From assembly GCA_038087875.1 (NCBI GenBank), contig CM075990.1:17920001-17984000 (forward strand): DNA of 64,000 nucleotides, given 5' to 3'. A program made the position numbers and the translations under genes. Below are positions 7,000 to 22,346 of the stretch, piece by piece (within the stretch, counting starts at the first letter, position 1; every line of letters begins with the position of its first letter). A model generated the notes under the pieces. It did not search any database. It was not told the DNA's origin and was given only the letters and a program-made list of their open reading frames with translations. This DNA is from Malacoraja senta. Taxonomy: Eukaryota.

Positions 7000-7090
7000 C
7001 TGGAGGTGCATTAGGATCTCTTAGCCAGTTTTTAGCCTGGTTTTTCTTTGAGTCGATCATAGCTAGAGCTCTTCTCATGGTCTCAGTGTC
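7000..7090 (-). CDS. vcl: vinculin exon 7 (91 nt)
   Basis: cag|GAC ACT GAG...CCT CCA G|gtaata; [31 protein letters not shown]. Absent from the ORF track. Confidence 0.96.
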
Positions 7091-8387: not shown

Positions 8388-8574
8388 TATTGTAATATAT
8401 ATTTTTGAATTATTTATATCAATTTATTTTCAATACATAGATACATAGAAAATAGGTGCAGGAGTAGCCAGCTGGCCCATTCAACGTGATCATGGCTGAT
8501 CATCCACAACAGTACCCCGTTCCTGCTTTCTCCCCATATCCCTTAATTCCGCTAGCCCAAGTAGCTCTATATAA

Positions 8575-8955
8575 AGGGGGGGGGGAGAAGGGGGGGGGAG
8601 AAGTGAGGGGGGAGAAGGGGGGGAGAGGAAGAAGGGGGGAGAGGAAGAAGGGGGGGAGAGGAAGAAGGGGGGAGAGGAAGAAGGGGGGAGAGGAAGAAGG
8701 GGGGGAGAGGAAGAAGGGGGGAGAGGAAGAAGGGGGGAGAGGAAGAAGGGGGGGAGAGGAAGAAGGGGGGGAGAGGAAGAAGGGGGGAGAGGAAGAAGGG
8801 GGGGAGAGGAAGAAGGGGGGAGAGGAAGAAGGGGGGGAGAGGAAGAAGGGGGGGAGAGGAAGAAGGGGGGGAGAGGAAGAAGGGGGGGAGAGGAAGAAGG
8901 GGGGGAGAGGAAGAAGGGGGGAGAGGAAGAAGGGGGGGAGGGAGAAGAAGGAGTG
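8575..8955 (+). repeat. polypurine minisatellite, about (GAGGAAGAAGGGGGGA)n
   Basis: About 380 nt of almost pure A/G with variable G-run length; explains spurious ORFs 8486-8968 and 8567-9004. Confidence 0.95.
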
Positions 8956-8984
8956 GAGAAACTTTTAAGAAGCCAGACAACTTT

Positions 8985-9622
8985 TGATAAAGTTTAGCGG
9001 GCATTTAACATTACCGGTCGGTTTTCCTTGGTTCTGAAAACTCCAATGAGCCAATTAGAATGCTCGGTCAGCAAAGGAGATTGCCTACGGCTACCCCGAC
9101 TGCCTGTAACTACATAGCAACCCCACTACCACTGCACTACAACCTCGCCGACCAATTTTTACTCGCGGAAAATTTTTCAGCATACTGAAATATTTTCCTC
9201 GACCAAACTGAGGCCGCGAGTACGCGGGAACTTCCCTCGAGCATGAAGTTAGGAACCTGTCCCACTGCGGAGACCTAATTTGCGAGATTAAAAGAGTTTG
9301 CCCTCGATTCATACTTGCAGCATGGTCTATATAACTCTCCTTCATGCTCGAGTAGTCCCCGCATACTCGAGGCCTCAGTTTGGTCGAGGCGTTTTTTTTT
9401 TAGCATGCTGAAAAGTGTCCGTGAGTCAAAAAAGGTCGGCATGGGAAAAAAATCTATATTTTTTTTACTCCTAGGTTAGTCGAAGTAGGCCGGCATGTTA
9501 TTCGTAGGTAATCGAAGGCAATCAAAGATAATCGAGGGTAGTTGAAGGTAATCGAAGGTAATCGAAAGAAGTCGTAGATAGTGTTAGTTAGACTATACTA
9601 AGGTAGTCGAAGGTGGTCGTCT
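8985..9622. mobile_element. fragments of a Harbinger-type MITE related to 11872-12535
   Basis: Shares aagtttagcgggcatttaac...gagattgcctacgg...ttttactcgc with 12156-12410; TIR-like cctgtcccac...acctaatttgcgag at about 9257. Confidence 0.65.
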
Positions 9623-11520
9623 TCAAAATTCCAGTGAATACAAGCCCAGTCGTTCCATTCTTTCATCATATGACAGTCCCGCCATCCCAGGAATTAACCT
9701 CGTGAACCTACGCTGCACTCCCTCAATAGCAAGATTGTCCTTCCTCAAATTAGGAAACCAAAACTGCACACAATACTCTAGGTGTGGTCTCTGCAGAAAA
9801 CTGCAGAAGGATCTCTTTGCTCCTATACTCAAATCCTCTCGTTATGAAGGCCAACATGCCATTAGCTTTCTTCACTGCCTGGTGTACCTGCATGTTTACT
9901 TTCAGTGACTGATGTACAAGGACACCCAGGTCTCGTTACACTTCCCCTTTTCCTAATCTGACAGCATTCAAATAATAATCTGCCTACTTGTTCTTGCCAC
10001 CAAAGTGGATAACCTCACATTTATCCACATTATACCACATCTGCCATGCATCTGTCCACTCACCCAACCTATCCAAGTCACCCTGCATCCTCATAGAATC
10101 CTCTTCACAGTTCACACTGCCACCCAGCTTTGTGTCATCTGCAAATTTGCTAATGTTACTTTTAATTCCTTCATCTAAATCGTTAATATATATTGTAAAT
10201 AGATGAGGTCCCAGCACCGACCCTTGCGGCACCCCACTAGTCACTACCTGGCATTCGGAAAGGGACCCATTAATTCCTACTCTTTGTTTCCTGTTGCAAA
10301 CCAATTTTCTATCCATGTCAATACCCTACCCCCTATACCATGTGCTGTAATCTTGCCCACTAATCTCCTGCGTGACCTTATCAACGGCTTTCTGAAAGTC
10401 CAAATACACTGCATCCACTGGCTCTCTCTTATCAATTTTACTTGTTACATCCTTAAAAAATTCCAGAAGATTAATCAAGCACGATTTCCCCTTTGTAAAT
10501 CCATGCTGACTTGGACCGATCCTGTTACTGCTATCCAAATGCACTGCTATTACCTCTTTAAAAATTGACTTTAGCATCTTCCCCACCATTGATGTCAGGC
10601 TAACGTCTATTATTCCCTGCTTTCTCTCTCCCTCCTTAAAAGGTGGGATAACATTAGCTACAGGAACTGATCCATAATCTATTGAACATTTGAAAATGAT
10701 CACCAATGCGTCACGATTTCTAGAACCACCTCCTTGAGTAAGTATCCTGGGATGCAGACCATCAGGCCCTGGGGATTATCAGCCTTCAGTCCCATTAGTC
10801 TACCCAACACCATTTCCTGACTAATGTGAATTTCCTTCAGTTCCTCCATCACCCTAGATCCTCTGTCCCCTACTACATCTGGGAGATTGGTTCTGTCTTC
10901 ACTAAGGATGATACAAACAAAGTACCTGTTCAACTCGTCTGCCATTTCCTTGTTCCCCATAATAAATTCACCTGTTTCTGTCTTCAAAGGACCCACATTT
11001 GTCTTAACTAATCCTTTCCTTTTCACATACCTAAAGAAGCTTTTACTATCCTCCTTTCTATTCTTGGCCAGCTTACCTTTGTACTTTTCTCCCCGTATTG
11101 CCTTTTAGTTACCTTCAGTTGTTCTTCAAATGTTTCCCAATCCTCTGGCCTCCCGCTCATCTTTGCTATGTAATACGTACTCTCTTTTAGTTTTATACTG
11201 TCGTTGACTTCCCTTGTCAGCCACGGTTGCCTCTTACTCCCCTTAGAATCTTTCCTCCTCTTTGGAATGAAATGATCCTGCATCTTCTGGATTATTCCCA
11301 GAAATTCCTGCTAATGCTGTGCCACCGCCATCCCTGCTAGGGTCCCTTTCCAGTCAACTTTGGCCAGCTCCTCCCTCATGCCTCCATAGGCCCCTTTGTT
11401 CAACTACAATACTGACACTTCTTATTTTATCTTCTCCCTCTCAAATCGCAGATTAAAACTTATCATATTATGGCCACTATCTAATGGTTCATTTACTTTG
11501 AGTTCCCTTATCAAATCCTT
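9623..11520 (-). mobile_element. degenerate CR1 LINE ORF2 fragment
   Basis: Frameshifted pieces with QHGFTKGKSCL, GVPQGSVLGP, FADD and HLEYCVQFW. Confidence 0.92.
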
Positions 11521-11670
11521 ATGAATGTCTCTAAATGTCAAAAGCATTTATTACCCATTAAACTGCTCCACAGCTTTAACCAAGCAAAACACAGGTAGCA
11601 GGACCTCAGCAGAATGTCATTTCAGACTCAAAAGCCATAAAGATGTTTGCTGTCTTACTTCCAAACATGT

Positions 11671-11791
11671 GGGATCATCACTGTAAACATATGGCATCAT
11701 TGCCATAGGCTCTCCAATCAGCACAGATGAGGGATCATCACTGTAAACATATGGCATCATTGCCATAGGCTCTCCAATCAGCACAGATGAG
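11671..11791. repeat. perfect 60-bp tandem duplication
   Basis: gggatcatcactgtaaacatatggcatcattgccataggctctccaatcagcacagatga occurs twice head to tail. Confidence 0.95.
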
Positions 11792-11871
11792 TGCAGGCAT
11801 TGATTCCAGGTGCCAGGTCAGATTCAGCATGACCTGGTACATTGTTCATCAACATTACCACTTAATTCTAA

Positions 11872-12535
11872 AGGGGCTGTCCCATTTGGGCAACCTAATC
11901 TGCGAGTTAAGAAGATTGTCTTCGACCTTCAAGCTCGATGGCACTCGCCTGGAAAACCCTCGAGCTGAATCGACTGTTCGCGTTGAAACCGCGAGCTGGA
12001 TTGACCGACCGCACACACACAAACACATCGCGAAGGCGGGGGCCAGGGAGAGCGGGGGAGCGCTGTCTGCGCGATGAAGAGGAAGGTAAACGGCTGCCAC
12101 AGTGTACGTTAAGTCCTTTAGAGAGTGCGGAAGTGGGAGGGGGGAAGCATAATAAAGTTTAGCGGGCATTTAACCTACCAGTAGGTTTTCCTTGGTCTTG
12201 AAAACTACAACGAGTCAATCAAAATGCCCGGTCAGTGAAGGAGATTGCCTACGGTTGCCCTCGACTGCCTGTAACTAAATAGCGACCCCACTCCACTACG
12301 AGTCAAAAAGAACCATGCCAACCAAATTTTACTCGCAGAAAATGTTTCAACATGCTGAAAAATTTTCCGCGACCTAGCTGAGGCCACGAGTATTCGGGAA
12401 GTTCCCTCAAGCATGAAGGAGAGTTCCAGCGACCTCATAGGACCTCCTAGGACCATGTGTCGACCATGCTGCGAGTTTGAAGGTCGAAGACACTCTTCTA
12501 AACTCGCAGATTAGGTCGCCCGAGGGACAGCCCCT
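11872..12535. mobile_element. PIF/Harbinger-type MITE
   Basis: TAA target duplication (11869-11871, 12536-12538); ~40-bp imperfect TIRs AGGGGCTGTCCC...ACCTAATCTGCGAGTT. Confidence 0.85.
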
Positions 12536-12855
12536 TAACTCACAATTAAGTCAAACTCAGTCATGGTGATGCAGCGTAGAAACAGGCCCTTAGGCCCAAC
12601 TTGCCCATGCTGAGCATCATCTACACTCTTCCCACCTGCCTGCATTTGCCCCATACCCTTCTAAACATATCCTATCCATGTATATGTCCAAACGTCTTTT
12701 AAACCTTGTGATGGTACCTGCTCAACTGCCTCCTCTGGAAGCTCATTCCATATACTCACCGCCTTTTGTGTAAAAAAAAGTTGATCCTCAGGTTCCTATC
12801 AAATCATCAACCGCACCCCCCCCCAACCCCACCTTAAAAATATGTCCTCTGGTTC

Positions 12856-13110
12856 TCAAGTCTCCCAACTGGGTCCTTGGTTATGCTGCTGGCCTTGCCG
12901 AGGCAATGTGGTGTAAATGGAGTCAACGGATGGGAGGTTAGTTTGCGTGATGGTCTGGGCAACATTCACAACTCGTAATTTCTTGCAGTCTTGAATGGAG
13001 TTGTTCCCAAACGATACTGTGATGTATCCCAATGAAATGTTTTCTACGGCACATCTGTAGAGGTTGGTGAGGGTTGTCGGGGACATGCTGAACTTCCTAA
13101 GCCTTCTAAA
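12856..13110 (-). mobile_element. Rex1/Babar-type LINE C-terminal fragment
   Basis: LTNLYRCAVENISLGYITVSFGN motif, similar to ORF 30176-30631. Confidence 0.7.
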
Positions 13111-13139
13111 GGTATTGGTGTGTATTGAATGGATTGGTG

Positions 13140-14742
13140 TGTATTGAATGGATTAAAGGCCGATAAATCCCCAGGGCCAGATAGGCTGCATCCCAGAGTA
13201 CTTAAGGAAGTAGCCCCAGAAATAGTGGATGCATTAGTGATAATTTTTCAAAACTCTTTAGATTCTGGAGTAGTTCCTGAGGATTGGAGGGTAGCTAATG
13301 TAACCCCACTTTTTAAAAAGGGAGGGAGGGAGAAAACGGAGAATTACAGACCAGTTAGTCTAACATCGGTAGTGGGGAAACTGCTAGAGTCAGTTATTAA
13401 AGATGGGATAGCACCACATTTGGAAAATGGTGAAATCATTGGACAAAGTCAGCATGGATTTATGAAAGGTAAATCATGTCTGACGAATATTATAGAATTT
13501 TTCGAGGATGTAACTAGTAGAGTGGATAAGGGAGAACCAGTGGATGTGTTATATCTGGACTTTCAGAAGGCTTTCGACAAGGTCCCACATAAGAGATTAA
13601 TATACAAACTTAAAGCACACGGTATTGGGGGTTCAGTATTGATGTGGATAGAGCACTGGCTGGCAGACAGGAAGCAAAGAGTAGGAGTAAACGGGTCATT
13701 TTCAGAATGGCAGGCAGTGACTAGTGGGGTAGCGCAAGGCTCAGTGCTGGGACCCCAGCTATTTACAATATATATTAATGATTTGGACGAGGGAATTGAA
13801 TGCAACATCTCCAAGTTTGCGGATGACACAAAGCTGGGGGGCAGTGTTATCTGTGAGGAGGGTGCTAGGAGGCTGCAAGATGACTTGGATAGGCTGGGTG
13901 AGTGGGAAAATGCATGGCAGATGCAGTATAATGTGGATAAATGTGAGGTTATCCACTTTGGTGGCAAAAACAGGAAAGTAGAATATTACCTGAATGGTGG
14001 CCGATTAGGAAAAGGGGAGATGCAACGAGACCTGGGTGTCATGGTACACCAGTCATTGAAAGTAGGCATGCTGGTGCAGCAGGCAGTGAAGAAACGAATG
14101 GTATGTGAGCATTCATAGCAAAAGGATTTGAGTATAGGAGCAGGGAGGTTCTACTGCAGTTGTACAGGGTCTTGGTGAGACCACACCTGGAGTATTGCGT
14201 ACAGTTTTGGTCTCCTAATCTGAGGAAGGACATTCTTGCCATAGAGGGAGTACAGAGAAGGTTCACCAGACTGATTCCTGGGATGTCAGGACTTTCATAT
14301 GAAGAAAGACTGGATAGACTCGGCTTGTACTCGCTAGAATTTAGAAGATTGAGGGGGGATCTTATAGAAACTTACAAAATTCTTAAGGGGTTGGACAGGC
14401 TAGATGCAGGAAGATTGTTCCCGATGTTGGGGAAGTCCAGAACAAGGGGTCACAGTTTAAGGATAAAGGGGAAATCTTTTCGATGAGAAAAACATTTTTT
14501 ACACAGAGAGTGGTGAATCTGTGGAATTCTCTGCCACAGAATGTAGTTGAGGCCAGTTCATTGGCTATATTTAAGAGGGAGTTAGATGTGGCCCTTGTGG
14601 CTAAATGGATCAGGGGGTATGGAGAGAAAGCAGGTACAGGATACCGAGTTGGATGATCAGCCATGATCATATTGAATGGCAGTGCAGGCTCGAAGGGCTG
14701 AATGGCCTACTCCTGCACCTATTTTCTGTTTCTATGTTTCTT
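13140..14742 (+). mobile_element. young 5'-truncated CR1 LINE
   Basis: KSPGPD, NYRPVSLTS, QHGF, FADD and CVQFWSP motifs with few frameshifts; CR1 3' UTR and ttctatgtttct tail. Confidence 0.95.
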
Positions 14743-14759
14743 CGCTATCGATTCAATGA

Positions 14760-15235
14760 GGCTGGTCCAGGACAAATTGCTTGGTGAAATTTATTCCCAA
14801 GAACTTAAAGCTATCAACCATCTCTACTTCGGAGCCGTCAATGTACACCAGAGCGTGAAGTCAGTCCTGAAGTCCTAAAGTCAGTCACAATCTCCTTCAT
14901 CTTGCTGACATTGAGGGAGAGCTTGTTGTCTTGGCACTCTCCTTACTGTTCTCTGTCTTGTCATTATTTGACATCCGGCCCACTATGGCAGTGTCGTCTG
15001 CGAACTTGTAAATTGAGTTGAATTGGTATTTGGCTGCACAGTCATGTGTGTATAAGGAATATAATTGGGAGCGGAAAATGCACTAGTGTTGAGGATTATC
15101 GTGGAGGATGAATTATCACCTATCATATGTGTCTGTTGGTCAGGAAGTCAAGAATTCAGTTGCGGAGGGGAGTACTAACTCCAACTTCCACAAGTTTGGA
15201 GACGAGCTTGGTTGGGATAATATTGTTACTGTCAA
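14760..15235 (-). mobile_element. old Rex1/Babar-type RT fragment
   Basis: Minus strand encodes degenerate LVSKL..., THDCAA, YKFADDT, similar to 30634-31000. Confidence 0.65.
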
Positions 15236-16108
15236 TACAAGCCTGAAACATTACCATAATTTTTAATACCATTGATTTCTTTGCAATTGAACCAATTGAC
15301 TTCATATTACTAATGCCCCTGCATATGAAAGAATTTTAAAAGCAACAAAGAATTATGCAGAGTACTTTTTTAAATGTGAACCATATGCGTATATTATTTA
15401 TTGGTCTGATTTCATTGCACGGACTTTCCAAAGTTGAATTTTTCACAAATTGCCTCTGCAGTAATTTGATTAAAAGATTAAATTTGATGTGAAAGGAAAA
15501 GTTATTGCAAACTTATAAAATACATTTGGAAAGCAAATTTACGAGGGTTTTATATTTTGAGAAGAAACTTGATTGATAATAATGATAATAATTACTGTAG
15601 TACATAAGAAAATAAACAAACATTTCAGAGCTCCTTAAAACCAATTTCAGACTTTGTCAAAACTAACTTCTTGGCAGATCTTACAAAGCTTTTGTTTTGT
15701 CATTGTCTGCAAAAGGAAATGACACTTTTTTTCCAGGCAAGTTGCATCCTATGGTTATTAAACAAACAGGGCCTATATATTCATCTGCCTTTTTCAAGCA
15801 TAACCTTCTTCAGTCAAACATGCAAAATAATCTTGTGAAAGCACTAATTCATTCATTGCAACCATATCGATGCTGTGATAATCAAGCAGTGATCATCTGA
15901 AAAGTGTATTTTTAATTAAAGCATAATGTGGCGCAGCAAAGGAACACAGGAAAGCATGTGGTTCTTCTCCAATTGAAAAAAAGAGCATATTCTTGACGGA
16001 ACTACACCAACTCTGATGTTCTATTCACTTCCTTCAGTGTCATTTGTAGCAAATTGGTGCTCCATTACAAATCAACATATTAGTTGTAAACAAAGAGAAT
16101 GATCCAGA

Positions 16109-16296
16109 GGTACACAAAAATGCTGGAGAAACTCAGCGGGTGCAGCAGCATCTATGAAGCGAAGGAAATAGGCAACGTTTCGGCCCGAAACGTTGCCTAT
16201 TTCCTTCGCTCCATAGATGCTGCTGCACCCGCTGAGTTTCTCCAGCATTTTTGTGTACCTTCGATTTTCCAGCATCTGCAGTTCCTTCTTTAACAC
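16109..16296. mobile_element. Penelope-derived foldback (inverted pseudo-LTR) insertion
   Basis: 76-bp arms (16108-16183 and 16185-16260) with one mismatch; 13-bp target duplication AGAATGATCCAGA at 16096-16108 and 16297-16309. Confidence 0.8.
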
Positions 16297-17939
16297 AGAA
16301 TGATCCAGACACTGGTGCAGTGGAAAAAGTACTTTAATGTGACAGTTGGAAGCAGAATCTTGCCATTTTAAGCTCATATGTGTTTAATAATTGTCGCTAA
16401 TTTCCCAGCCAGCACTTGGCACAATAATGAACTGACCATTTCCAATTGCTTGATAATCTTACGACTGAGTGGAATTTACTACGAATGGCTGGGTTGAGTG
16501 ATCAATACTCATGGCAAATTATTCTCAGTGAAAATCGAGCAATAGCAAGTGTGCCATTTTTTATAATTATTTTAATTCCACGATCAGTTTAAAAATGCAC
16601 GGTACTCAGCTTTAGACAAGTAAAAAACCCATCAGTTACAACTGCTATGGTGTAGCTGCTGATTAAACTGTGCTCTACTCACAACTGGTTGCAGAGAAGG
16701 TTTACCTCTCAATACTCACCCTAGCCTTTAGTTATATTTTAATGCAGTAAAGAATGCAAACTCAACAAAAATACCCCCTCAACATCAGTACGATACTGCA
16801 CTAAGATTTGGTATTGTGATTCATTCAAAGTTAAACTGTCACCAAATTGCACTAAATGAGATTCTTAGACAAGTTGATAATTGAATATGCTTTCAAAAAT
16901 ACTTTCAACAGGAATGCAAGGAATTAAAAAAATTAACTAAACCTATTCAGTGTAAATGGAAATTATACACTGGATTGCATGAATTAAGAGGCTGTCAGAT
17001 TGAAAGAAAACAAACTTTCATTGACATTACCTCTATCCAGAAATTTATCTAAACTAATGCAGTCCAAGTCACTTCCTGGATGCACAGTTAGAACTGTGAA
17101 TATAAAAGATTACTACAGCCTCGTGGTAGAAGCACATACAAGCAGTGTTTTTGTTTTTTTAATACATCAACCCTTTAGCAGGACCTCTATGTTAATCTAA
17201 AAACTTTGCTGTTCAGGTAATATTTACAACATGTCCAAGTTCTGTTTCTCAGACAAAACAAAGAAAAAGTGTGAATTCTGGTTTAGTTTTCCATGAATCT
17301 TTTATCAATTCACTTATAACTACATCATCATATTCTCCTTTAGAATGTTCCTAATGCTACTTCAATGTATCAAGGCTACAAAATCCTAATTGATTACTGG
17401 ATCATAGCAATGAACCTAATCCTACCTGCAATATTTACAGCACAAAGAGCAGTTCTTAAAAACAAAGTGTAGATGATGGAAGAATGGAACCAAAATTGTC
17501 CTTGATTGATGGCATGACAGAGAAACTGAAATAATCCTCTGCATCGGATATTTTGAGTAACTGTTGGTTACTTCCAGTGAAGGAAGAGGTGGTTGAGAGA
17601 TTGGAAAGGATAAAAATAGATAAACCAGAATCATTAAAAAAGTTGATTGCATTTAAAGTAGTAATGTTACCCAGTGTGGATGGCATGCTTCCTAGATTAT
17701 TGAAGAAATAAGGGTAGAAATTGTGAACCATAATCTTCAAATCTTGCTCTACCACAAGAATTGGAAAGACAATTACATGATTTCACCCTTTCTTCTCACC
17801 CAAGATTGATACACGAGCCAAATAAATCCCAGTCAGTTAAAAAAGAGGCAAAAGAAATGTTTGTTAATCTCAAACAGAATTCATTTTGAAAAATGTTCCA
17901 AAATGAAAGCCAACTTTGGTTTTAAAAGACAAATAACTG

Positions 17940-19340
17940 AGGTAAACCAGGGCAGGATCTTCATAGTGAATGGCAGAGCCCCAGGGTGTGTGGTAGAACA
18001 CAGAGATCTAGGAGAGTAAGTACTGAGTTCCCTGAACGTCACATCACAGGTAGATAGGGTGGTCAAAAATGCTTTCGATACATTGACCTTCACCAGTCAT
18101 GGTAATGAGTATAGAAGTTGAGATGTTACAGTTGTACAAGACATTGGTGAGGCCACATTTGGAGTATTGAAAGTGAATGGTATATTAGCATTCATAGCAA
18201 AAGGATTTGAGTATAGGAGCAGGGAGGTTCTACTGCAGTTGTACAGGGTCTTGGTGAGACCACACCTGGAGTATTGCGTACAGTTTTGGTCTCCAAATCT
18301 GAGGAAGGACATTATTGCCATAGAGGGAGTGCAGAGAAGGTTCACCAGACTGATTCCTGGGATGTCAGGACTTTCATATGAAGAAAGACTGGATAGACTC
18401 GGCTTGTACTCGCTAATATTTAGGAGATTGAGGGGGGGATCTTACAGAAACTTACAAAATTCTTAAGGGGTTGGACAGGTTAGATGCAGGAAGATTGTTC
18501 CCGATGTTGGGGAAGTCCAGGACAAGGGGTCACAGCTTAAGGATAGAGGAGAAATCCTTTAGGACCGAGATGAGAAAAACATTTTTCACACAGAGAGTGG
18601 TGAATCTCTGGAACTCTCTGCCACAGAAGGTAGTTGAGGCCAGTTCATTGGCTATATTTAAGAGGGAGTTAGATGTGGCCGTTGTGGCTAAAGGGATCAG
18701 GGGGTATGGAGAGAAGGCAGGTACGGGATACTGAGTTGGATGATCAGCCATCATCATATTGAATGGCGGTGCAGGCTCGAAGGGCCGAATGGCCTACTCC
18801 TGCACCTATTTTCTATATTTCTATGTTTCTATTGTATTCAGTTTGGGTCACCCTGCTACAGGATATTGTTAAGCTGGAAAGAGTGCAGAAAAGATTTACA
18901 AGGATGTTGCCAGGACTTAAAGGCCTGAGCTATAGGGAAAGGTTGGATAGGATCCCTTGGAGTGCAGGAGGCTATGGAATGATCTTACAGAGGTGTATAA
19001 AATCATGAGTGGAATAGAAAGGGTAAATGCACAGATACTTTTACCCAGAGTAAGTGAATCAAGAACCAGAGGACAAAGATTTAAGATGAGAGGGGAAAGA
19101 TTTAATAGAAACCCGAGGAGCAACTTTTTCCACACAGTCTGGTGGTTGTAGGGAATGTGATGCCTAAGGAGGTAGTTGAGGCAGGTGCAATAACCACTTT
19201 TAAAGACACTTGGACAGGTACATAGAAAAACATTCAGAAGACTATGGGCCAAATGCAGGTGGAAGGGACTAGCATAGATGAGGCATATTTGACGGCATAG
19301 ACAAGTTGGGCCGAAGGGCCTGTTTCCATACTGTATGACT
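17940..19340 (+). mobile_element. old CR1 3' fragment interrupted by a young CR1 3' end (about 18170-18832)
   Basis: The young piece is nearly identical to 14090-14742 and splits an older ...ggagtattg|tattcagtttggg sequence. Confidence 0.9.
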
Positions 19341-20655
19341 GTTAAGAAGCTTCATGACAATTTTCTCAAGGACAATTAGTGATGGGCTACAAATATTTGA
19401 TCCAACTGCAATATCCAGTTCCCAAAAAGAGAATTAATAAGCCATCAAGTCACCTGATGAAATGTTTTATGATAAAATGGAGAGCAAACCCGAGGTTCAA
19501 GCAGTTTGCTGAGCGGATACAAACCTAGCTAAGAGTCAGAAAACAATAACAGCTGACTGAAGAGAGGCCTAATGATGACACTTGAGAGATTTGCTATTGG
19601 GATAGCCACCCTTCTGGTAGGCCACTGGGCACTATTACAACCTTTGTTGGTCATATAGAACTTTTTTTAAATATAGGAGTCAATGAGAAGGATTGCAATT
19701 GATCTGTGAGGACAGAATGGCTGGTAAAATGAGCAGACATATGGCAGATGACATTCAACACAGACAAGTGCAGAATTAAATATTTAGCTCTGAATGGGGA
19801 CAGACAATAAGCCAAAAGGACAATTTCAAAATGACTGTATAAACGTAGTCTGAGGACTGTGAAAACACATGGTACTGAAAAACAAGCTAAAAAACATCTT
19901 TAAAATAAGTCTAAGCAATAGGTCTTTATAAATGGATGCAGCCTACAAGTAGTGAATTAGACTAGAGGATTCTACAAAACACTGATCACACCCGTTAGAG
20001 TACTGTATGTAAATTTCATTTAAGGGGATTTATTAACACGAGAGAGTACAGGGATGCCTTATGGGAATTGTTGCAAAGATGAAGGGGTTTAGCTATTTGA
20101 AAAGGCAGGTGTTCTCTTTAGAACAGCGAAATTAAGAGATTTGATCGAGATATTCCAAAGCAACAAAGGTTTCTTGGAATCTTGGAAACTTTATTGTCAT
20201 TCAGACCTTTCGGTCTGAACGAAATTTTGTTCAACAGAGTAAATAAGGAGAATACTGTCCCCAATGGATCAGTAACCAGACACTGCATTTCACCAATAAG
20301 GAGCAGTGTTAATTAAACTATTATCAATATTATCCTATTCAGAGGTCATGTCTTATCCTTAAGTTCACCTCTCCTCTACTTTTGAAATAATAAAACTTTA
20401 AAAGTGGCATTTTAGGAATCATGCCAAAAACAGATTCTGTCAAAGCTTTTTTTAGAAGCATGGTCAAATCATGGTTTGTAGTTGAAAAAGTTCCAGATAT
20501 GTAACCTAACAGCAGAATTTAATTTTAGGTATTGTGTTCAGCATCTGCTAGCCATGACATTAATTGAAGCAAACTGCACCACACACAAGGCAGTTACCTG
20601 CATTCTTTCGGTACATGCTTCAGCAGAAAAGCAAAGAAAACAAAAGTGAGCTTAC

Positions 20656-20658
20656 CTT
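20656..20658 (-). CDS. vcl: candidate 3-nt alternative microexon of vinculin (AAG = Lys) or recursive splice site
   Basis: Minus strand ...ttttctttgtttcttcttcattctcccttgtag|AAG|gtaagc. No AG dinucleotide on the minus strand from 20661 to 20798. The phase-0 intron makes it frame-preserving. No transcript evidence available. Confidence 0.55.
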
Positions 20659-21361
20659 CTACAAGGGAGAATGAAGAAGAAACAAAGAAAAGGGTAAAAA
20701 TAAGTTTGTAATGATCAAAGAAGAAAATGAATATAAAAGAAAATTATGAAACATGCAATATTTTGACCACAAATGCGGCAGAAAATTTACAGCAAGATCT
20801 CTATGATAAATTTTCTTATTGTCCACTGACACACTTATAACAATATAAAAACATACTGAGTATATAAAGCTGCATCTAAAGTTAATTGTCTTTGCAAATT
20901 CATATTTTTTTGGCCAGATGTTCAATGGATATCAGAAGGGAAAGTATATACTATCCTGCCTCGGAACAGGCACTTCACCTGAATGGACATGCTCGCACGT
21001 TATGACTTGGCATTCTATTGTATTTTTCTGCAGTAACAAATAAATAAGTAAGCTTTAAATGTTCCTATTGTTTGTAGCACAATAAAAAAAATATATATAT
21101 ATATATACCTGGCACTTCAACCAAGATTTTTTAGAAAAGTGAAATGGTGAAAAATGCAAAACGGGACATAAAAAGGTCTACACATACAAACACTCCAGTG
21201 AAGGAACATATATATTTTCAGAACCAAGTAATTATTACCCTATTAAGAATAAGATCCAAAAGCATATTATACGTCAATAGAAAAGTAAATAAAAACCTTA
21301 ACACTGAAGTTATTTCTTATAAAGCACTTGCATTATTTCCTGTCACAACTTTCAAATTTAC

Positions 21362-21522
21362 CTTACTGGCCCAAGCATCTTCATCCCAAGATGTTAGCTG
21401 TAACACACGAATTATCTCACTAATTTCAGTACTCATCTTTTCCACAGTGAAGTTACGGTTCTTTAAAGCTTCTTCCATTCCCTGGCTTTTGAATTGTTTT
21501 GTAGTCACAAAAATCTTTATGG
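21362..21522 (-). CDS. vcl: vinculin exon 6 (161 nt)
   Basis: cag|CC ATA AAG...AGT AAG|gtaaat; (A)[53 protein letters not shown]; ends in phase 0. Confidence 0.97.
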
Positions 21523-22346
21523 CTGTAAAGCATAAATATTATAAAATTACATTTAAAGCATTTCAACAAGATATATAGCCACAAGCATGCATACACACAT
21601 TATTTGTGCTTCAAAAACAATCCTATTTATTAGAACCTTGATTTCACCTTCAAGTACAATCATTTGCAAACTCCTATAACTCAATAAATTATTGGATCAT
21701 TGAAATAAAGTAATAAAGATTTGATTCTGTGCAAGAAAAAGTCATATACCACATGTCTACATGGATTTTAGTAAGATATTTGATACCTTAGTAAGGTATT
21801 TACTTACTACCACCCCATGGTAGACTCAGTAGATTAAGATGCACAGTATTAATAGTGACTTGGAGATATGGATACAGAACTGGCTTACTGTTAAAAGCAA
21901 GAGGTTTGTGGTGGAAGGACAATATTCACGCTGGAGGTCTATAACCAGTGGATTACCGCAAGGATCTGTGCATCAATAGTGGGATTTAAGAGACTTTTGG
22001 ATAGGCACATGGGTATGCAGGGAATGGAGAGTTATAGATTATGTTCAGGTAGATAAGAGGTCCTGGCATCATGTTCAGCACAGACATTGTGGGCTGAAGT
22101 GCCTGTTTTTTTGCTGCACTGTTCTACGTCCTAATAACTACAGATGCTGGTTTACAAAGAAAGAGTGTTGGAGTAGCTCAGCGGGTCACTTTAATTGCAA
22201 AATCAAATCCTATTGACAAGTTATATGCACTCAAATTTGAATAGATTTGAAGAATGAAAAAATAAATTAATGAAACAGTGAGGGGTGGACAGCACCAAAA
22301 AAAATCGAATATACTTTCACACTGCTGGAGATTGATAGACAGATCA

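Follow-up and report, generated by a model that had tools for sequence, protein, structure and literature searches.

An AAG triplet enclosed by a strong acceptor and a strong donor on the minus strand of vinculin intron 6 in the skate Malacoraja senta raises the question of what these three letters do: are they an exon of three nucleotides, adding a single Lys to the protein, or a site at which the intron is removed in steps? The window, that is the whole stretch of 64,000 nucleotides analysed here, includes vinculin exons 2-11, and exon 1 lies about 7 kb outside it (the exon numbering was checked). Genome searches with each of two vinculin exons returned a single match each. The exons that flank the intron are the following.

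21522-21362, minus strand: vinculin exon 6, ending in the WASK codons, with the donor GTAAAT
7000..7090 (start 7090), minus strand: vinculin exon 7, beginning with DTE, with an acceptor without tandem AG

The exon 6 peptide aligns to residues 209-261 of the solved human and chicken vinculin chains and is 100% identical to skate vinculins, including that of Amblyraja radiata. The intron, which an earlier note on this DNA had described as a phase-0 intron of 14 kb, measures 14,271 nt and is indeed in phase 0; AAG lies 703 nt from exon 6. Much of the intron is filled by interspersed repeat copies in both orientations (8400-19340) and a purine-rich tandem array of 386 nt (8574-8959). It also contains a near-perfect palindrome of 153 nt (16108-16260; 76-nt arms, 99%), which likely represents two head-to-head repeat fragments. 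In exon 7, the minus-strand codon at 7043-7045, in the first helix of D2, specifies Lys, whereas Ile, Met or Leu stands at this place in the vertebrate relatives that were fetched; the codon could be a rare allele or could result from an error in the assembly.

The signals around AAG are read from the sequence, and the exon itself also draws on isoforms with an additional Lys in relatives.

20661-20798, minus strand: AG-exclusion zone of 138 nt with a polypyrimidine tract
20661-20659, minus strand: 3' splice site TAG
20658-20656, minus strand: AAG, very likely a cassette microexon of 3 nt that inserts Lys after K261
20655-20650, minus strand: 5' splice site GTAAGC, where two teleost read-through models also run K-V-S

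The tract, TAG, AAG and GTAAGC had been reported previously and are present letter for letter, and the nearest upstream AG (20800-20799) leaves the 138-nt zone free of AG as claimed. With three nucleotides between a canonical AG and GT, the island falls within the 3-27 nt that define cassette microexons. It also stands out from similar arrangements. The two strands of the window together contain 16 AG-NNN-GTRAG sites. Of these, the island has the highest pyrimidine content (0.88; the runner-up has 0.71), and none of the others has an AG-free zone of more than 50 nt; its AG gap ranks 9 (tied) of 8,553. Intron 6 carries only two AG-AAR-GT sites and the other one has poor signals. A second donor-like site, CAG/GTAACT (20592-20599, minus strand), is located 58 nt behind the microexon donor in a conserved block. 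Splicing at this second site would lengthen the exon to 61 nt and bring in a stop in frame, so that it could act as a poison extension.

Proteins of other species provide the main support for the exon. A search for an extra Lys at the exon 6/7 junction recovered it in 130 of the 472 fetched vinculin records, a ratio which is no measure of abundance since one query carried the additional Lys and most records are predicted models. The remainder comprises 293 records without it, 39 unclassifiable ones (mostly read-through fragments), 9 in which the motif is missing and one with a 10-residue insert. In 26 exact pairs the two records differ by nothing but the Lys. Carriers among fishes include chimaera, catshark, whale shark, thorny skate, sturgeon, bichir, pike and salmonids and, among tetrapods, frog, lizards, snakes, turtles, alligator, many birds, platypus, echidna, marsupials and placentals including monkeys and rodents. 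The residue is kept in every major jawed-vertebrate group sampled and in both teleost paralogue types. In the skate Amblyraja radiata, XP_032868536.1 has the Lys and isoform X4 lacks it, as do XP_032868534.1 and XP_032868535.1, respectively. Other examples are Scyliorhinus (XP_038639185.1), Callorhinchus (V9K798) and baboon (XP_009212888.1). These isoforms support the claim that a single Lys is added after K261, near the D1-D2 junction. The suggestion that annotation had missed the exon does not hold, since the isoform already figures in NCBI models of another skate and of many vertebrates.

The Lys is also found outside gene prediction from genomes, in pig NP_999099.1/AAL50327.1 (P26234-2) and in Logan de novo contigs of 4.9-5.1 kb (P0437/P0382, P0438/P0381, P0263). 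That three such contigs carry it in a full-length frame suggests that the Lys form can be the main one in some samples. In tenrec, R261 is followed by K, which shows that the insertion does not simply duplicate the codon in front of it. The NCBI and UniProt isoforms resemble the window's AAG in that the exon 6/7 junction gains a single Lys behind residue 261, and they are mostly paired with a form without it, but they are protein records without tissue or function and none was seen for the genome of the window. The extra Lys is absent from the fetched models of Leucoraja and of most rays and sharks. It occurs at the junction in primate proteins, and no human protein with it was retrieved among the fetched vinculin records. 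Beyond jawed vertebrates, none of 26 aligned representatives has it (150 were listed, with one representative per cluster, so that isoforms are not visible), and no lamprey or hagfish record was identified.

Some models at this junction are unusual. Two vole models (P0271/P0273) have VS replacing D and an eagle model (P0070) has the 10-residue insert; these are likely prediction artefacts. Two teleost models (P0196, P0204) read WANKK-VS, as if the microexon were fused to exon 6. This candidate arrangement was rejected since the same flounder gene has models without Lys (P0383 and others), and the WANKK-VS models therefore represent the microexon with intron read-through. As a separate observation, the metavinculin-type insert, of 68 residues in mammals, comprises 78 in a skate model and 59 in one of the teleost paralogues (records P0004, P0437, P0381); de novo contigs combine it with the Lys as well as with its absence.

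A likely human counterpart is already catalogued: VastDB event HsaEX0070285 of VCL is 3 nt long (class MIC, chr10:74076110-74076112) and has a row in S3 Data of PMC7935315. In the accessible part of that source, its mean PSI drops from 9.7 in normal samples of head and neck to 1.7 in tumours, and it changes only in head and neck, whereas the metavinculin exon changes in other tissues, prostate, uterus and colorectum. The event shares gene and length with the window's AAG and sits 35.8 kb upstream of the metavinculin exon. From the human exon coordinates we take it to lie in intron 6, presumably about 1.2 kb from exon 6 compared to 703 nt in the window; the literature search provided no confirmation of the human VCL exon coordinates. 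With this assumed placement, the window's AAG is likely its skate orthologue.

Sequencing reads were considered over the region 20300-21600, for which 4 of 23 listed runs, three RNA and one DNA, all from relatives, were aligned; the listing included no RNA run of Malacoraja senta itself. RNA contigs of all three RNA runs join exon 6 directly to exon 7 (tissue is unlabelled and contigs give no levels) and, within this region, their contigs include none with AAG inclusion. Together with the 26 protein pairs, this establishes that forms with and without Lys both exist in relatives. One low-depth contig of 178 nt (20483-20660; run X17 record 3, RNA of a relative) begins exactly at 20660, in the acceptor AG. 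A genome match is predicted to start at 20660 if exon 6 is spliced to TAG and at 20658 in recursive use. The boundary of this single contig is therefore a hint in favour of the exon. It is also where RNA with exon 6 already spliced on would merge with unspliced RNA, and so hints that the upstream part of the intron was removed first.

In the DNA of a relative, 41 intronic differences are listed for the 1,021 bases covered, and 2 further ones are unlisted. From 20609 to 20769 there are 0 listed changes where 7.7 are expected (P=0.0005, or 0.018 if both unlisted ones fell there). This stretch is part of a larger block.

20521-20782, minus strand: intronic block low in differences, with 2 listed in 262 nt against 13.5 expected

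For this block P=0.00015 (0.003 if both unlisted differences fell there). Both sets of bounds were picked after inspection of the data; with the bounds of the earlier note, 20600-20800, there are 5 changes where 8.8 are expected, a deficit without significance (P=0.13).

The explanation which we hold with strong confidence is that AAG is an optional vinculin exon which adds one Lys; this exon may be under RBFOX/MBNL-type control, mainly in striated muscle, and might shift the hinge between D1 and D2. By default, with AAG below the length that ordinary exon definition requires, exon 6 would be spliced to exon 7. In striated muscle, inclusion might be raised by the strong donor, by the long tract devoid of AG and by GCATG and YGCY downstream; these two steps are proposed jointly and tentatively, as about as probable as their opposite or slightly less so. 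Definition of the 3-nt exon by its strong acceptor and donor would then occur in some cells and add a Lys in frame, and this residue would in turn shift the hinge between the two head domains.

Three putative regulatory features surround the exon.

20757-20752, minus strand: TGCATG, putative RBFOX-type motif upstream of the exon
20618-20614, minus strand: GCATG, putative RBFOX-type motif, +38 from the donor
20568..20633, minus strand: four YGCY, putative MBNL-type motifs, and a UG-rich run downstream of the donor

The motifs claimed for this region, TCAT starting at 20749, 20730, 20714 and 20674, TGCATG and GCATG, are all present. The first 100 nt downstream include 4 YGCY compared to 1.13 per 100 nt in the intron (counts only), and no QKI motif occurs in the 200 nt downstream of the donor. 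The reading as a muscle exon draws on the GCATG at +38, from the four YGCY and UG run, and from the restriction of the human change to head and neck; normal head-and-neck samples may include skeletal muscle, and on the human side the reading corresponds to a single table row. HsaEX0070285 was not present in the human heart-development tables searched. As far as the available part of the source describes it, the Snap23 microexon of striated muscle (RBFOX2/QKI/MBNL; PMC12064062) is a comparable short cassette exon; the AAG exon has downstream GCATG and YGCY and differs from microexons of this type in having no QKI motif in 200 nt. We regard RBFOX/MBNL-type control in striated muscle as a possibility whose chances fall somewhat short of even.

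The same exon could instead be neural and driven by SRRM3/4 or NOVA, a reading which concerns its regulation rather than its identity. Most catalogued conserved 3-nt exons are neural, and the AAG exon shares with SRRM3/4 microexons its length of 3 nt, preserved frame, deep conservation, strong signals and long AG-free zone. The TCAT motifs are moreover without listed change in the DNA of the relative. However, in SRRM3/4 microexons a UGC enhancer is expected shortly before the 3' splice site, and here no UGC is close to the acceptor, the nearest being 99 nt upstream of the exon. The NOVA argument fails as well: four YCAY in the AG-free zone do not exceed shuffled sequences (mean 2.67, P=0.27), and the proposed cluster was rejected since base composition alone accounts for this count. 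In addition, the 18 readable supplementary files of PMC7935315 contain HsaEX0070285 a single time, in a tumour table, and the SRRM4 target data of that one study do not list it, a comparison which assumes orthology. There is also no VCL microexon row in the searched files of PMC9303857 (12 of 18) and PMC13281805 (a part). SRRM4 control appears unlikely, and a neural exon of either type is improbable, if still worth considering. Of the two halves of the claim of a regulated neural or muscle exon, the evidence, which is weak, leans towards muscle, and the tissue and the role of RBFOX stay presumptive.

The effect on the protein is less clear than the presence of the exon. AlphaFold modelling of the thorny skate pair places the Lys site at the start of the first helix of D2 (255/256-285/286), next to residues 253-258 of the D1-D2 linker, whose pLDDT is <50. 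The models with and without Lys hardly differ, and they are unreliable at the Lys site. The accessible part of a preprint ties closed and open D1-D2 arrangements to vinculin oligomerisation (10.1101/2022.11.07.515412), which makes an effect of the Lys on the hinge plausible. An extra residue at the start of the helix might shift the register of the helix or alter the register or length of the linker, alternatives between which the models do not discriminate, and thereby tune opening of the head, an idea drawn from the models that we find conceivable but doubtful.

Conversely, the exon could be real, included at low levels and near-neutral, being kept by constraint on its splice signals with the protein unaffected. 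Several observations are in agreement with this: the human mean PSI is below 10 in the single tissue listed, three RNA contigs skip the exon, the adjoining low-confidence linker could absorb a residue, and the literature search found no functional paper. Since the exon ends in AG, the constancy of Lys itself may reflect splice signals and not protein function. Retention of the exon throughout the jawed-vertebrate groups and teleost paralogues mentioned above, the three Logan contigs with Lys in a full-length frame and conservation of the flanking intron nevertheless argue against near-neutrality, which appears distinctly unlikely.

Two further readings deny the exon itself. In the first, the main role of the element would be in recursive splicing, as a zero-length site where use of the second AG is followed by use of GTAAGC. 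AAG/GTAAGC does form an AG/GT junction behind a strong tract, and the end product would be skipping, as in the RNA contigs. However, the first AG past the tract belongs to TAG, and a TAG acceptor is normally preferred to AAG. The YAG sits 3 nt from the GT and the acceptor adjoining it would be AAG. Vertebrate recursive sites have been described in far longer introns than the 14 kb found here, the one informative contig boundary (weak evidence) is at 20660 rather than 20658, and a recursive site would leave the conserved Lys unexplained. This alternative, raised together with the exon, is accordingly disfavoured and very improbable.

The second reading, that the Lys records stem from a tandem acceptor, a shifted donor or an aligner artefact and that the AAG island is a look-alike, could appeal to the predominance of predicted XP_ models and to the odd vole and eagle models but can practically be dismissed, as the exon 7 acceptor in the window is without tandem AG and the 3 nt after exon 6 would code for Val (both sources are ruled out by sequence in this gene), the Lys is present in genome-independent records, the human event is catalogued as a separate 3-nt exon and two teleost models read Lys then Val-Ser, as read-through of the microexon donor would. 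With no tandem or shifted site and one credible AG-AAR-GT site in intron 6, the AAG island is likely the source of the Lys. That it is this source and is included in some tissues of Malacoraja senta appears to us very probable.

The Lys insertion is old among jawed vertebrates and already annotated, and its function has been neglected in the literature searched. Outside subscription papers and VastDB itself, no study of the AAG exon or its function was found, and the identifier HsaEX0070285 was in no main text. A VCL microexon row was likewise lacking in PMC7821500 (8 supplementary files, in which events may be listed by coordinate), in the searched supplements of PMC4317164 (all but file 1) and in PMC12925949 (6 supplementary files), and a search in the text of PMC12626420 gave no match. 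In their available portions, a 2025 vinculin review and a paper on RBFOX1 and vinculin equate alternative splicing of this gene with exon 19, and the word microexon does not occur in the review. The metavinculin exon 19 (PMC12490864 and PMC11216089, as far as accessible) is also an alternative vinculin exon and is RBFOX-regulated in muscle, but it inserts 68 residues of known function in the tail where the AAG exon contributes one residue of the head.

As a sequence feature, the AAG exon belongs to an ordinary, known class and its interest is in the neglect of its function. The insertion sits between D1 and D2, the domains whose relative movement was tied to oligomerisation in the accessible part of the preprint (10.1101/2022.11.07.515412). 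It is a speculative and rather unlikely proposal that vinculin has a second, so far overlooked functional splice switch, of jawed-vertebrate age, in which a striated-muscle Lys re-registers the D1-D2 hinge and tunes activation or force independently of metavinculin. If the Lys does affect the mechanics of the head in muscle, one isoform axis would have been ignored in studies of vinculin mechanotransduction and of cardiomyopathy.
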